Positions 2,904 to 14,155 of a stretch of 20,000 nucleotides of DNA are shown here, piece after piece. Positions within the stretch are counted from its first letter, which is position 1. The number at the start of each line of letters is the position of its first letter. Source of the stretch: Spirochaetales bacterium. Lineage in GTDB: Bacteria > Spirochaetota > Spirochaetia > Treponematales > UBA12059. The stretch is taken from NCBI GenBank assembly GCA_016928955.1, contig JAFGJV010000033.1, positions 54,413-74,412 of the forward strand, in the 5' to 3' direction. The notes beneath the pieces are model-generated. The model was given only the letters and a program-made list of their open reading frames with translations. It was not told the origin of the DNA and did not search any database. The position numbers and the translations under genes were made by a program.

Positions 2904-3620
2904 TCAGGCGGCCTGTATCCTGGCAACCAAGCGGTCCACCAGGCACTGCATGGGGTCCACCAGGGGCACGGACACGTCAGCCTGGCCGAGCACCAGGCTC
3001 ATTTCCGCGCACGCCACCACGACCAGGTCGGCCCCCCGGGCTATGAGCCTTGCGGCAGCCTGCTTGAGGAGACGGCGCGGTTCGTCGCCCACATTGCCCG
3101 CCTTGATGCCCTGCGGGCCATAAATGGCCTCCATGACAAAACGCTCCTGGGCTTCGGCGTCGGAGTAATGGACCCTGAGCTCAGGCACATGGCGCTCGAA
3201 CAGCTCTGCCTTGATGGCGCCCGTGGTGGCAAGCACGCCGATGCGCTTGACCGCGGGATATTTGGCGGACAGATGGTCCTTGAGCGCGTCAAAAGCAGAC
3301 ATAAACTCGCAGTGGACGGCTGCGCGCAAGCCGTCCAGATACGCGTGCGCCGTGACGGACGCAACAACGCAGAGCGTGGCGCCCGCTTGCGTGAGGCGCC
3401 GCGCTGACGCCATCAGGGCCGGCAGGGGGTCTGGCCCCGTTCCGAGGATGTGTTCGGTCCTGTCCGGAATTGAAGGATCGGAATCCACGATGACGCGGGG
3501 ATGGCCGGAGTCGCCCGGAGCCCTCACAGCCAAGGTCAGCTTCTTGAACAACTCGGCCGTTGCCAGAGGCCCCATGCCCCCAATGATGCCAATAACCGGT
3601 GCCGTGCCGCGTTCCGCCAT
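2904..3620 (-). CDS. Aspartate/glutamate racemase family protein with atypical active site (238 aa)
   Basis: Motifs IGIIGGMGPLAT, IPDRT, TAH, IGVLATTG, CAE, VDPM. SD GGGAGGA (plus-strand tcctccc 3624-3630) precedes ATG 3620, so the longer ORF call to 3827 is probably not real. Confidence 0.88.
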   Translation of the reverse strand: MAERGTAPVIGIIGGMGPLATAELFKKLTLAVRAPGDSGHPRVIVDSDPSIPDRTEHILGTGPDPLPALMASARRLTQAGATLCVVASVTAHAYLDGLRAAVHCEFMSAFDALKDHLSAKYPAVKRIGVLATTGAIKAELFERHVPELRVHYSDAEAQERFVMEAIYGPQGIKAGNVGDEPRRLLKQAAARLIARGADLVVVACAEMSLVLGQADVSVPLVDPMQCLVDRLVARIQAA

Positions 3621-3766: not shown

Positions 3767-3795
3767 TTGCCCAAGAAGGCTTTTTTTCCGATACT
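3767..3795 (+). promoter_or_regulatory. Putative sigma70 promoter for the metK leader
   Basis: TTGCCC (3767-3772)-17 nt-GATACT (3790-3795). It would start transcription near 3802, just upstream of the riboswitch. Confidence 0.45.
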
Positions 3796-3825
3796 GGGTA
3801 GGTGCCCTGGCTCACCAGCCTGGAC

Positions 3826-3903
3826 ACGCCGCCGATTTATACCGAATTGCGGGCGGGTTGCGCGGGCTTATGCCCGACGCAAGGAAACCAGCTAAAAGGG
3901 AGG
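3826..3903 (+). ncRNA. SAM-II class riboswitch aptamer with an inserted hairpin (long-loop variant)
   Basis: Element order: P1 CCGC (3829-3832), CGATTT (3833-3838), ATACCGAA, TTGC (3847-3850), GG, P1' GCGG (3853-3856), inserted hairpin TTGCGCGGGC-TTAT-GCCCGACGCAA (3858-3882), GGAAACCA, GCTAAA (3891-3896), AGGG. This follows the SAM-II pattern (YGAUUU...CC...UUGC..P1'...GCUAAA..GGG) and lies upstream of metK. Confidence 0.85.
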
Positions 3904-4009
3904 GCGCCCTGGCTCCTCGCGGCGTCTCGCTCATCCTCCCGACAGCATGTTCCACGCTCCCCGTTGTCCAGTCGTGCGGAACTATATCCACGCATCACGG
4001 GAGGATAGT

Positions 4010-5176
4010 ATGAAAGACCAACGGTATCTGTTCACCTCGGAATCCGTCGGGGAGGGACATCCGGACAAGCTGTGCGACCAGGTATCTGACGCGGTGTTGG
4101 ACGCCTGCCTTGCCGAGGATCCGGAGAGCCACGTAGCCTGCGAAACCTTCGCCACAACGGGCATGGTCCTGGTCGGCGGCGAAATCACCACCAATACCTA
4201 CGTGGACATTCAAACGCTCGTCCGCGACGTCGTCAGGGACATCGGCTACACCAACCCGGACTACGGCCTGGATTTCGAGTCCATGGCCATACTCAACACC
4301 ATCCACTCCCAGTCGCCGGACATCAACCAGGGCGTGGTCGGCCAGGGGCTCAAGGAGTACACGGGCCAGCAAGGCGCAGGCGACCAGGGCATGATGTTCG
4401 GCTTTGCCTGCACGGAGACGCCCGAATTGATGCCGGCGCCCATCCATTACGCCCACGCCCTTTTGCTCAGGGCCACCGAGCTCCGCAAGGGCAAGGTGCT
4501 TCCCTGGCTCCGCCCCGACGCCAAAAGCCAGGTAACGCTGGAATACGAGGGGCACAAGCCGGTGCGGGCTGACGCGGTGGTCGTGTCGCACCAGCACGAC
4601 CCTGACGTGCCGTATGAACGCATCAAGGAAGCGGTCATAGAGGAAATCATCCGCCCGGTGCTGGAGCCCACGGGCCTTCTGACGGCAGACACCAAGTATT
4701 TTGTCAATCCGACCGGCCGCTTTGTCATAGGCGGCCCCATGGGCGACACGGGGCTCACCGGACGAAAAATAATCGTCGACACCTACGGTGGCATGGGCCG
4801 CCACGGCGGCGGTGCGTTCTCGGGCAAGGATCCGTCCAAGGTCGACAGGTCCGCAGCCTACATGGCGCGCTATGTTGCCAAGAACGTGGTAGCCGCGGGT
4901 CTTGCCGAACGCTGTGAGGTGGAGCTTGCTTACGCAATTGGCGTGCCATTCCCGGTGTCCATCATGGTTGACACGTTTGATACGGGCAAGGAACCGGAGC
5001 ATCGCATCATAGAAGCCATCCGGAAGGTATTTGACCTGAGCCCCGCGGGCATCGTCCGCACGCTCAGACTCAAGGCTCCCATTTACCGCAAAACCGCCGC
5101 GTACGGTCACTTTGGCCGGGACGGCTTCTCGTGGGAAGCGACCGACAAGGCTAAGGAACTGATGGCCGCTATCTAA
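4010..5176 (+). CDS. metK: S-adenosylmethionine synthetase
   Basis: Motifs [73 protein letters not shown] at 3999-4004 precedes ATG 4010. Confidence 0.98.
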
Positions 5177-7240: not shown

Positions 7241-7308
7241 GGCTTCCGGGGAACCGGTTTCCCGCATACGCTGACCACGAACCATACCGTTTGAGCTTTC
7301 TGACAAAA

Positions 7309-7350
7309 ACAAAGGGCCGGATGTTTCACGTGAAACATCCGGCCCTTTGT
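7309..7350 (-). terminator. 42-bp perfect palindrome, probable (bidirectional) terminator of gyrB-gyrA
   Basis: ACAAAGGGCCGGATGTTTCAC|GTGAAACATCCGGCCCTTTGT, 24 nt past the gyrA stop. On the minus strand it runs into TTTGTTTTT. Confidence 0.75.
7322..7337. promoter_or_regulatory. parS site, perfect consensus
   Basis: TGTTTCACGTGAAACA, 16/16 match. Confidence 0.95.
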
Positions 7351-7374
7351 ATGCGTTCACTCGTTAATTGTGCG

Positions 7375-9919: not shown

Positions 9920-11887
<1,968 letters not shown>

Positions 11888-11922
11888 TTACGGTCGAGAA
11901 CGGGCCTTCCGCGTGAAGCTGC

Positions 11923-11951
11923 AGTATATCCTTGACGCCCAGAAAAGTAAA
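11923..11951 (-). promoter_or_regulatory. Putative sigma70 promoter for gyrB-gyrA
   Basis: Minus strand TTTACT-17 nt-TATACT, about 95 nt upstream of the gyrB ATG. Confidence 0.55.
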
Positions 11952-11993
11952 GAACACGCCACTATATAGGAAAGTTCTCGTTTGTCTTTTCAA

Positions 11994-12238
11994 TGTGGAT
12001 AACGTGTGGAAAAAATACAATTTCCTTTCCTGTAAAGGAATAAGGACACGTATAGTATATTCCCTATTTATTCTGCGTGTAGCAACAAGGGATTTATTTT
12101 ATTATTTAGTAACAATTTATTGGTTTCATGCATGTTTTGGACTCTTTTGATGAAACATATACCCTCTATGGCGGAAAAACGAAGAGTGCTATACTCTCCG
12201 AATATTCTGCTGGAAGTCTGTGGATAACTTGTGGGAAG
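11994..12238. promoter_or_regulatory. DnaA-box cluster upstream of dnaA (oriC sub-region 1 / dnaA autoregulation)
   Basis: TGTGGATAA 11994-12002, TGTGGAAAA 12005-12013, TGTGGATAA 12219-12227 and degenerate TGTGGGAAG 12230-12238, arranged as two tandem pairs with an 11-bp period. AT-rich tract at about 12050-12130. Confidence 0.85.
12187..12195 (+). promoter_or_regulatory. Putative extended -10 promoter of dnaA
   Basis: TGCTATACT (TGn-TATACT), with the DnaA-box pair 12219-12238 just downstream, as expected for autorepression. Confidence 0.5.
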
Positions 12239-12309
12239 CCGCGCGGGGACATCCGTAAGGCGCCTGCTGTACTTGATCGAGACACTGGCAAACACGGAGA
12301 AACGACCCT

Positions 12310-13680
12310 ATGAGCGAATGGGATTACAGCCTGTTTTGGAACGAAGCGCTGAGCCAGTTCAGCAAGGAACTCAGCGAACAGGAATTCTCCATGTGGTTCA
12401 ACATAAGCTACGATTCTTCCCAACAGGATACCATCAGGGTTCGGGTACCTTCATCGTTCTACCGTGACCATCTGGACAAGGCCTACCGCCCCGCCATTGA
12501 AGCCAAGCTTTTCGATCTGTCGGGCAAGCGGCTGAAGGTGGAATTTGTCATCGTCAAACCGAACGAGCATGCCCAGCCGAAACCCGCCGCGCAGACCGCC
12601 AAACCGAGCGCCAAGCCCGCCCAGGAAACGCCAAAAACCCAGCACCCCCAGCTTCAGCCTGAGCACAATTTTGAAAACTACGTGATTGCAGAAAACAACG
12701 CTTTTGCCGCCAATGCGGCCATGGCTATATCATCAAACCCGGGCATGGCCTACAATCCTTTCCTGATATACGGAGGCGTTGGCCTGGGCAAAACCCACCT
12801 GATGCAGGCCATAGGCAACCGCGCGTACGCCCTGAACCCAAAACTGAAAATCATCTGCATTACCTCAGAAAATTTTTCCAACGACTTTGTCAGCGCCATC
12901 ACCAACCAGACCATGCCGGCTTTCAAGAACCGCTACCGCTCGGCGGACATGCTCCTGATAGACGACATCCATTTCTTTGAGAAAAAAGAGGGCTTCCAGG
13001 ACGAGGTCTTCCACACCTTCAACGCCCTCTACGAATCCAAAAAGCAGATGGTATTCACCAGCGACAGGCCGGCTTCCGAACTCAAAAACCTGTCAGAACG
13101 CCTCCGCAGCCGCTTTGAACGCGGCCTCAACGTGGATCTGTTGCCGCCAAACTATGAAACCAGGCTGGCCATCTTACGGCGTAAAATGGAACATACAAAA
13201 ATAAAAGTTCCTGACGATGTACTCGACGTCATATCCCACAACATATCCACAAACGTAAGGGATCTTGAGGCGGCGCTTTTGAAACTGACGGCCTACGCCG
13301 AGCTGGTGGGCATAGACATAACCATGGAAATAGCCCAGCAACAGCTGAGGGACGTATTCAGCCAATCCAGGCACGGCAACGTGACTATTGACCACATCAT
13401 CAGGACGGTGGCCGAGCAGTTCAAGGTGACCAGCAACGACCTCAAAGGAAAAAAACGAACCAAAACCATTGTCTTTCCCCGTCAGGTCGCCATGTACATT
13501 GCCAGGGAGATCACCGAGTACTCAACCACCGAGCTTGGTTTGGAATTCGGTGGCCGTGACCACACCACCGTCATGCACTCCTGCCAGAAAATTGACGAAC
13601 GCCTCCGTACCGATCCGGCCCTGGATGTGACCCTCCAAAAACTCATTCAGACTATCAAGCAAGCCAGTATTAAAAACTGA
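12310..13680 (+). CDS. dnaA: Chromosomal replication initiator DnaA
   Basis: Motifs YNPFLIYGGVGLGKTHL, LLIDDIHF, FHTFNAL, RLRSRF, NVRDLEAAL, PRQVAMY, FGGRDHTTVMH. Confidence 0.98.
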   Translation: MSEWDYSLFWNEALSQFSKELSEQEFSMWFNISYDSSQQDTIRVRVPSSFYRDHLDKAYRPAIEAKLFDLSGKRLKVEFVIVKPNEHAQPKPAAQTAKPSAKPAQETPKTQHPQLQPEHNFENYVIAENNAFAANAAMAISSNPGMAYNPFLIYGGVGLGKTHLMQAIGNRAYALNPKLKIICITSENFSNDFVSAITNQTMPAFKNRYRSADMLLIDDIHFFEKKEGFQDEVFHTFNALYESKKQMVFTSDRPASELKNLSERLRSRFERGLNVDLLPPNYETRLAILRRKMEHTKIKVPDDVLDVISHNISTNVRDLEAALLKLTAYAELVGIDITMEIAQQQLRDVFSQSRHGNVTIDHIIRTVAEQFKVTSNDLKGKKRTKTIVFPRQVAMYIAREITEYSTTELGLEFGGRDHTTVMHSCQKIDERLRTDPALDVTLQKLIQTIKQASIKN

Positions 13681-13870
13681 AGGCTCAAAGCCATTTTTGA
13701 AGTCAAGTAGCCTCCAACAGGGTGATGAAGCAGAAGGCATTGCGTTTTCCATTATACTGCTCATACCCTTTGGTTTTGAGGTTTTCTGCTGGTGAAACCT
13801 AAACATCCAGGTTTTCCGCGGGTCATAACCTGCGCATACACCCTGAATATCCGGTGTGTAAGTGACCTAC

Positions 13871-14040
13871 TTGTCCACCGAAACTCCGTTCCTGTGGACA
13901 AAGTGCATAAGCTGGTTCGAAAAAGCAAGGTTTTTTCTACATGCTAAGTTCTTTTACTAAAAGAAAAAAATTGACTTTTACACATTGCGTTATGCTTATT
14001 ATTACTACTACAAATTTATATAAATTTATTTACATAATAG
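13871..14040. other. oriC unwinding region (DnaA boxes, DnaA-trios, AT-rich DUE) between dnaA and dnaN
   Basis: Boxes: TTGTCCACC 13871-13879, TGTGGACAA 13893-13901, AGTGCATAA 13902-13910, TTTTCTACA 13933-13941, TTTTACACA 13976-13984 (fits TTWTNCACA). Then trios TTA TTA TTA CTA CTA at 13996-14010 and an AT-only palindrome AAATTTATATAAATTT at 14012-14027. Confidence 0.82.
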
Positions 14041-14125
14041 AGAAACTCTTTCTAAAGTCGGACGAGTTTTGAAATTGGCTCTAGGGTCTGAAAAAACCAC
14101 CCCTCAACTCTTTGAGGCTTAGTCG

Positions 14126-14155
14126 TTGCGCTGGGCCCCTCCTTCGTGCTATTCT
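14126..14155 (+). promoter_or_regulatory. Putative promoter for dnaN-recF-dciA
   Basis: TTGCGC-18 nt-TATTCT with an extended TG at 14147-14148, 30 nt before the dnaN ATG. Confidence 0.45.

Follow-up and report, generated by a model that had tools for sequence, protein, structure and literature searches.

A SAM-II-type riboswitch candidate with an optional SAM-V-like hairpin and a putative leader-ORF relay to metK in Treponematales

Introduction

Does the metK leader of a probable spirochaete contain a SAM-II-type riboswitch, and if so, how would such an RNA control a gene whose start codon lies about 110 nt away from the Shine-Dalgarno sequence (SD) of its aptamer? These questions are raised by a stretch of 20,000 nt (the window), in which an initial annotation, made from the sequence alone, had proposed a SAM-II riboswitch with a 25-nt hairpin insertion at positions 3826-3903. 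SAM-II riboswitches have been described in Proteobacteria and Bacteroidetes (Corbino 2005; Barrick and Breaker 2007; Meyer 2009; Weinberg 2010; Leyn 2014), and riboswitches are reported to be rare in the bacterial group to which the window appears to belong (PMC2258182). A search of the literature on SAM-II in spirochaetes or Treponema, on ahcY and metK, and on upstream ORFs (uORFs) returned no report of the present family, while the supplements of such papers may mention the L3 hairpin or spirochaete matches.

Results

Anatomy of the metK leader

Direct reading of the sequence recovered all proposed SAM-II core elements, in order and each where it had been placed. The P1 pairing CCGC/GCGG is present as claimed, but the stem is one pair longer than proposed, and the 3' partner of the CC at 3842-3843, given before only as a GG, could be refined to G3899-G3900. 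The gene located 3' of the element, at 4010-5176, is indeed metK. The features of the leader are as follows.

3767-3795 (+): likely sigma-70 promoter, with -35 TTGCCC at 3767-3772, a 17-nt spacer and -10 GATACT at 3790-3795 (read by eye)
3829-3833 (+): P1 5' strand, CCGCC (pairing in 77 aptamers)
3834-3838 (+): GAUUU, predicted third strand of the SAM-binding triplex (RF00521 consensus match in homologs)
3842-3843 (+): CC, 5' side of a 2-bp P2a that would capture G3899-G3900 of the SD
3846-3850 (+): AUUGC, P2b 5' strand (UUGC at 3847-3850)
3852-3856 (+): P1 3' strand, GGCGG (pairing in 77 aptamers)
3858-3882 (+): optional L3 hairpin, at the position of SAM-V P3
3883-3890 (+): A-rich linker GGAAACCA, predicted to make A-minor contacts to P1 (by inference from SAM-V A41/A42)
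3891-3896 (+): GCUAAA, P2b 3' strand (mapping inferred from SAM-V)
3899-3903 (+): upstream SD GGAGG, 3' end of the aptamer, within GGGAGGG at 3898-3904
3909-4013 (+): leader ORF of 34 codons, with a CUG start and a TGA stop that overlaps the metK ATG (ATGA)
3933-3941 (+): anti-SD AUCCUCCCG, complementary to the metK SD (9 nt, 100%) and partly to the upstream SD
3998-4006 (+): metK ribosome-binding site CGGGAGGAU
4010-5176 (+): metK, SAM synthetase, 388 aa (TIGR01034, 613 bits)

The 3' end of the promoter-like TTGCCC-N17-GATACT lies about 30 nt upstream of the aptamer. It is absent from the list returned by a consensus scan; a TTG..N17..GATA(C/G/A)T-like arrangement was seen by eye in most of the upstream regions of 16 relatives. 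An 18-nt direct repeat, 83% identical, links the predicted transcription-start region (3796-3813) to the SD-CUG junction (3898-3915); it occurs only in the window and may be due to chance. The intergenic region that holds the leader is shared with a divergent gene at 2904-3620 (-), which encodes an amino-acid racemase of the cysteate racemase CuyB type (NF052483, 203 bits). Further along the window, 11830-14130 is likely to be a replication origin region, in which gyrB-gyrA diverge from dnaA-dnaN-recF around an AT-rich gap at 11980-12200, with the GC-skew minimum near 14-15 kb; dnaA was confirmed, and the other four genes are presumed from their translations.

Ligand binding in SAM-II is described as near-identical to that in SAM-V (PMC6061858), which allows the contacts to be mapped by inference. 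A3835, U3836, U3837 and U3838 would correspond to SAM-V A7, U8, U9 and U10, and U3893 and A3896 to U47 and A50. By this mapping, all nucleotides predicted to contact the ligand are present (U3836, U3837, U3848, U3893, A3894 and A3896), with U3893 predicted to pair with the adenine of SAM and A3896 with its aminoacyl end. The AA of the linker at 3883-3890 is kept at 90% or more in alignment A1. The locus is a real candidate for a SAM-II-type riboswitch, and it is very probable that the RNA binds SAM.

Conservation of the pairings and the optional hairpin

Homologs were collected by a pattern search, which gave 92 rows; 83 loci were kept (57 before metK and 26 before ahcY) and nine, with other genes or none downstream, were dropped. 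The 83 loci comprise 77 distinct aptamers. In these, pairs 2-5 of P1 are standard in 76-77 of 77 and pair 1 in 69, while a sixth pair, of five different pair types, can form in 64. Compensatory changes in P1 are few within the order; second aptamer copies carry other P1 sequences. P2a, formed with the first GG of the SD, is C-G in all 77 at one position and C-G or U-G in 75 of 77 at the other. The four pairs of P2b are 100% paired and invariant, but this is partly circular, since the search patterns required those motifs; one P2 position changes from U-A to A-U in eight aptamers. The percentage paired exceeds that of all 500 shuffles, but a slid control is equally high for covariation; covariation is therefore modest, and it is conservation and gene context that carry the case. 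The folding z-score of the whole leader (-0.88) is uninformative, as pseudoknots are outside the folding model.

The hairpin at 3858-3882 is exactly 25 nt long, as had been noted, and consists of 5+5 bp with a bulged A. It is predicted to fold at -17.6 kcal/mol (z = -3.85), a value equalled by one of 200 shuffles. The suggestion that it marks a lineage-specific variant did not hold, because the hairpin is optional within the order and also found in proteobacterial copies. A long L3 is present in 44 of the 77 aptamers, while the other 33 have a loop of 12-14 nt instead. The sequences of the long loops are unrelated, and 40 of the 44 fold better than 95% of their shuffles; among the 120 matches listed from a wider scan (see below), at least 17 non-treponemal ones have a long L3, at least 11 of these with a significant hairpin. 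As such, the hairpin is real but optional.

Why covariance models miss the element

It had been suggested that standard models may miss the element, and 3780-4020 indeed gave no Rfam match at E<=10. Across the whole window, the Rfam scan returned two weak matches, both unrelated to the element: one at 12769-12841 (-) inside dnaA, a sub-threshold AsdA match of 31 bits that reflects coding similarity, and one at 7270-7351 (+), sub-threshold as well, on a terminator-like hairpin between convergent genes. Neither RF00521 nor RF01726 exceeded its cut-off in any of 61 related genomes, the best RF00521 score among them being 30 bits against a gathering threshold of 36. Membership of the RF01726 'long loops' class can be dismissed on this count and for want of a match at the locus. 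RF01826 gave no match in the scan of 3780-4020, among 14 chosen loci, or in 41 genomes, but in the last case no control genome was matched either.

The inserted hairpin had been suggested as the possible cause of the miss, which is correct only in part. Among the 14 chosen loci, SAM_alpha was found at E<=1 in five of seven hairpin-less treponemal loci and in none of four with a hairpin, so that the insertion does abolish the weak signal. However, the hairpin is not the sole reason, because hairpin-less homologs, which align along the entire RF00521 model, also remain below the cut-off at 23.6-30 bits. The model itself is narrow, since one proteobacterial copy also scores only 30.3 bits.

A custom model was built from 45 homologs, none of them the window or a member of its MetK clade. 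On the genome, this model gave the window 60.7 bits (E = 6e-14) as its sole match at E<=0.5, and the full pattern (core, P1 and CC/GG) likewise occurs once in the 2.87-Mb genome, with no match for the reversed control. Among 61 relatives the model matched 41, many of them from its training set; in a sample of 150 genomes from the phylum, matches outside the order were weak only.

Distribution and gene context

In a view that is unbiased by the search patterns, the core was found by eye within 300 nt upstream of 21 of the 30 best metK loci, which shows conservation before metK in relatives. The other nine have the end of an ahcY-like gene upstream of metK, and in seven of these nine genomes the aptamer precedes ahcY. 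The patterns matched 32 of 42 genomes of the family (reversed-pattern control 0 of 42) and 71 of 331 of the order (control 1 of 331), the latter divided by family into f1 31 of 41, f3 15 of 108, f4 22 of 69, f5 2 of 107 (without a proper P1) and f6 0 of 4. Within three families of the order the element is widespread, lying ahead of metK or ahcY. A pattern scan across GTDB gave at least 120 matches, 80 of them named; among the 80 named matches listed, 76 carry proteobacterial labels, two Treponematales, one Fibrobacter and one Synechococcus. The two treponemal records, labelled Treponemataceae or Treponematales, share the leader type of the window's family, which supports the proposal of a spirochaete host. 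The Synechococcus-labelled record (L090) has a leader that resembles the Hydrogenophaga type, possibly through contamination of the bin.

Operons of ahcY, in part with metK, are headed by a SAM-II-type aptamer at L199-L203, L216, L217, L261-L263, L266-L272, L275-L278, L302, L303 and L305; in Proteobacteria, SAH riboswitches are the described regulator of ahcY operons (PMC4239095). In several AhcY proteins from aptamer-headed operons, the N terminus is extended in frame by a variable stretch of roughly 10-18 aa that starts at the aptamer SD. Thirteen more SAM-II-like aptamers (L331-L337, L327, L330, L172, L182, L188 and L085) are often second copies with different P1 pairs, and the genes downstream carry no SAM-cycle annotation: they encode a sigma-70-like protein (L182), an HTH protein (L172) and unannotated proteins, with an apparent protein family common to L331, L334, L336 and L337. 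Variants of the GAUUU strand, namely GAGUU, GUUUU and GGUUU, occur at L339, L328 and L327 (G043, G051 and G039), L196 and L331. GAGUU, found in three f4 genomes, alters the U that is predicted to hold the SAM-pairing U, and such variants might differ in ligand affinity or specificity.

Direct leaders, distal leaders and the leader ORF

The 83 loci fall into two kinds. In 58 direct leaders the aptamer SD is the gene's own, with the start codon at +11 to +15 after GCUAAA; in ten of these, ahcY starts with an N-terminal extension. In the 25 distal leaders, which include the window, the gene starts 73-143 nt away. An ATG or GTG is found at +11 to +14 after GCUAAA in 20 of these 25, where 1.4 would be expected (11 of 15 representatives, 0.9 expected). 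The window has CTG at this position, and four distal leaders (L198, L273, L237 and L250) have no start codon there.

The frames opened in this way stop close to the main start. Within -20 to +12 of it, stops were found for 19 of 21 real frames (the other two at +31 and -31) and for 5 of 42 alternative frames; for representatives the count is 10 of 12 with 3.7 expected (P about 1e-4), bearing in mind that this interval was chosen after the data had been seen and that kin are not independent. In the narrower interval of -12 to +4 the stop is still found in 8 of 12 representatives (P = 0.002). The custom model later turned up four more distal leaders, two of them kin of counted leaders and two from a new genus, and all four stop within -20 to +12 (at -9, -13, -1 and -16). 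Genus g11 retains a stop in roughly one position, be it TGA, TAA or TAG. In the window's clade, indels of 6 and 27 nt preserve the frame and all members stop on ATGA; two of them, G022 and G011, have ATG where the window has CTG, and the SD-start junction of G022 is otherwise that of the window. Taken alone, the stop placement in the window is unremarkable (null 0.53), and a second frame also stops at -1.

A conserved leader peptide could be ruled out, the peptides being unrelated between lineages. Substitutions fall on all codon positions (28/35/39), which suggests that the act of translation, rather than the peptide, is what matters. Nor is the leader ORF a remnant of ahcY, as by eye no leader peptide resembles either end of AhcY; in G000, no ahcY was found. 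A general hairpin that covers the first start codon was likewise rejected (45 of 79 above the shuffled mean).

A putative relay to the metK start, and its rivals

The reading that we prefer, with a probability of roughly one half, is that a SAM-II-type pseudoknot with an optional SAM-V-like P3 lets SAM shut down metK translation from a distance, through a gated leader ORF that ends on the metK start. At low SAM, the 3' tail of the aptamer would be free and ribosomes could load on GGAGG 3899-3903, start at CUG 3909 (AUG in close kin) and translate the 34 codons, thereby stripping the anti-SD at 3933-3941 off the metK SD and allowing re-initiation at AUGA 4010-4013. At high SAM, the triplex would close and C3842-C3843 capture G3899-G3900, so that the leader ORF would go untranslated and the 9-bp anti-SD helix would keep the metK SD masked. 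By calculation, opening of the region from the metK SD to the AUG takes 13.1 kcal/mol with the aptamer core blocked and 6.5 with it free, and placing a ribosome footprint over the anti-SD gives 5.9.

Several points speak against such a relay: the CUG of the window is a weak initiator, the start codons seen elsewhere could have been inherited from a direct ancestor, and in Sinorhizobium meliloti metA the upstream AUG proved dispensable (PMC9373788). In the relay described for ppe2 of Mycobacterium tuberculosis, a CUG start mutant nearly abolished function (PMC11260477). The change from AUG to CUG would also suit an aptamer that is uncoupled or decaying in this genome, with the leader as a neutral spacer, as would the A-A at 3845/3897 in place of the common U-A and the mere two pairs of P2a. 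We consider this the least probable of the readings and highly unlikely, given that every core position, the perfect 9-nt anti-SD and the CC/GG are all kept, and that among the differences listed for a ~99% identical strain, none falls within 3826-3911. The RNA-labelled runs of one study (n = 4) contain this strain as contigs only, some longer than 100 kb, which is not evidence of transcription.

With CUG as the start of the window's leader ORF, strand exchange between RNA segments alone has to be taken as a serious and compatible rival. Here, the free aptamer tail would titrate 3934-3940 and open the metK SD, SAM would withdraw the tail into P2a, and the leader ORF would be a relic in the window. 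The upstream SD and the metK SD are nearly identical and would compete for one 9-nt anti-SD, which is perfectly complementary to 3998-4006, with a flanking pair that is G-C in the window and U-A in G011 and G022. By partition function, 32-40% of the free ensemble has the anti-SD paired with 3898-3903, whereas blocking the core brings its pairing with the metK SD to about 100%. Start-less L237 and L250, both strongly folded with strong SD occlusion, fit this exchange too. However, any anti-SD will by default pair with both SDs, freeing the tail has an effect of at most 1 kcal/mol in 9 of the 25 distal leaders, and the starts, frames and stops retained across the family would go unexplained. We therefore regard strand exchange as the lesser candidate and rather unlikely, while it can act together with the leader-ORF relay. 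A strong anti-SD is not a universal feature of the distal leaders, as only 5 of 25 show significantly more occlusion of the main SD than their shuffles (p<=0.05; window p = 0.075).

The weak CUG and the four start-less leaders out of 25 could also point to a distant-SD standby of the Sinorhizobium meliloti metA type, where the aptamer SD would recruit the 30S subunit for a direct start at the metK AUG and the leader would not be translated. One SAM-II riboswitch has been shown to work in this way over 74 nt (PMC9373788). In that system, however, the first AUG shares the frame of the gene and the ribosome-binding site downstream is inactive alone, whereas the leader frame of the window is shifted, ends at the main start, and precedes a metK with a strong SD of its own, which makes standby improbable. 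Rho polarity seems more doubtful still. In this case SAM would block leader translation, and the exposed C-rich, G-poor tract would bring about Rho termination before metK. In its favour, 22 of the 25 leader bodies have a C-minus-G value of at least 0.17 (0.19 in the window, within the top 1% of random genome windows), a rho gene is present in the genome, and no intrinsic terminator was found, which also discards an intrinsic terminator platform. Yet the window's leader is well structured, C-richness would equally follow from a role as anti-SD or from selection against spurious SDs, and Rho would be an add-on rather than the trigger.

Returning to the relay through the leader ORF, the distal arrangement appears to have changed repeatedly. 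On the MetK tree, the distal label requires five changes, at least three of them forced by strong branches, and on the AhcY tree two. Two direct leaders are nested within the window's distal clade, a pattern that would be expected from deletion between the two SDs. For the order as a whole, we narrowly favour the view that Treponematales carry an uncatalogued SAM-II/SAM-V intermediate whose output acts either directly on the metK or ahcY start or, interchangeably, through a sequence-free cassette of two SDs and a leader ORF that has been gained and lost repeatedly. If true, riboswitch-to-uORF relays would be a general, evolvable expression platform and not a one-off.

Discussion

The present locus adds a candidate SAM riboswitch to a group with few reported riboswitches, and annotation pipelines would miss the aptamer and the leader ORF alike. 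Of its two peculiarities, the hairpin to which attention had first been drawn is the lesser feature; the putative leader-ORF relay, which recurs in the family and had been overlooked, is of greater interest. The family provides some 29 natural distal leaders along with some 60 direct ones; their starts are AUG, GUG, UUG or CUG, or are lacking altogether, and this natural range means that coupling, strand exchange and standby should be separable by simple reporters.

Comparison with known systems

Like SAM-II (RF00521; Corbino 2005, PMC1273637), the element combines P1 with a pseudoknot, has GAUUU, UUGC and GCUAAA in the same order, and targets genes of the SAM cycle. It differs in its sub-cut-off scores (at most 30 against 36, with the window itself unmatched), in the G that follows UUGC in most copies where SAM-II has A, in the optional L3 hairpin and the 2-bp P2a, in its Treponematales-type spirochaete hosts, and in having ahcY as the target at 26 of 83 loci. 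SAM-V (RF01826) has a P3 stem-loop 3' of P1, which is stated to be absent from SAM-II, and its P2a, of 2 bp, takes in the SD (Huang and Lilley 2018, PMC6061858). The present RNA shares both the stem-loop and a 2-bp P2a overlapping the SD, along with a predicted translational OFF logic and, by the inferred mapping, equivalent ligand contacts. Unlike SAM-V, the window follows the SAM-II sequence consensus, and its hairpin is longer and optional. The absence of a P3 helix, as stated for SAM-II, does not apply to the window or to 44 of the 77 aptamers; with a SAM-II core, a hairpin at the P3 position and a 2-bp P2a, the RNA thus has the sequence of SAM-II and a SAM-V-like periphery. One core may or may not carry the hairpin at the P3 position, which blurs the boundary between the two classes.

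Two other relatives of SAM-II may be set beside it. The beta-proteobacterial metXZ element (Leyn 2014, PMC4239095) is probably a terminator-linked, proteobacterial form of the same core, but differs in its transcriptional terminator platform and its metX and metZ targets. The SAM-II long loops class (RF01726; Weinberg 2010, PMC2864571) is likewise a SAM-II variant that tolerates insertions, though its hosts are Bacteroidetes and marine organisms.

As for the distal output, S. meliloti metA and the window both have a SAM-II SD and an extra start codon that lie about 75-110 nt ahead of the true start. In metA, the SD acts from 74 nt upstream and the in-frame AUG1 is dispensable, with a terminator intervening (Scheuer 2022, PMC9373788), whereas the leader frame of the window is shifted, ends on the metK start, and is accompanied by an anti-SD and a second, strong SD. 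That study leaves open how prevalent such distant-SD control by SAM-II may be; uORF coupling is reported to be common in S. meliloti (PMC13285730).

A relay by way of a leader ORF has precedent in other riboswitch classes. In ppe2 of M. tuberculosis, a B12 riboswitch acts through a uORF (uPPE2) whose stop overlaps the start of the gene as AUGA (PMC11260477). The arrangement here is similar, with a riboswitch that is predicted to gate a uORF, a conserved start after the riboswitch SD (CUG in the window), and a stop at the main start, which in the window overlaps the metK AUG as AUGA. Unlike here, ppe2 has no SD of its own and its aptamer is of another class, while in the present family, direct and relay forms alternate on one and the same kind of aptamer.
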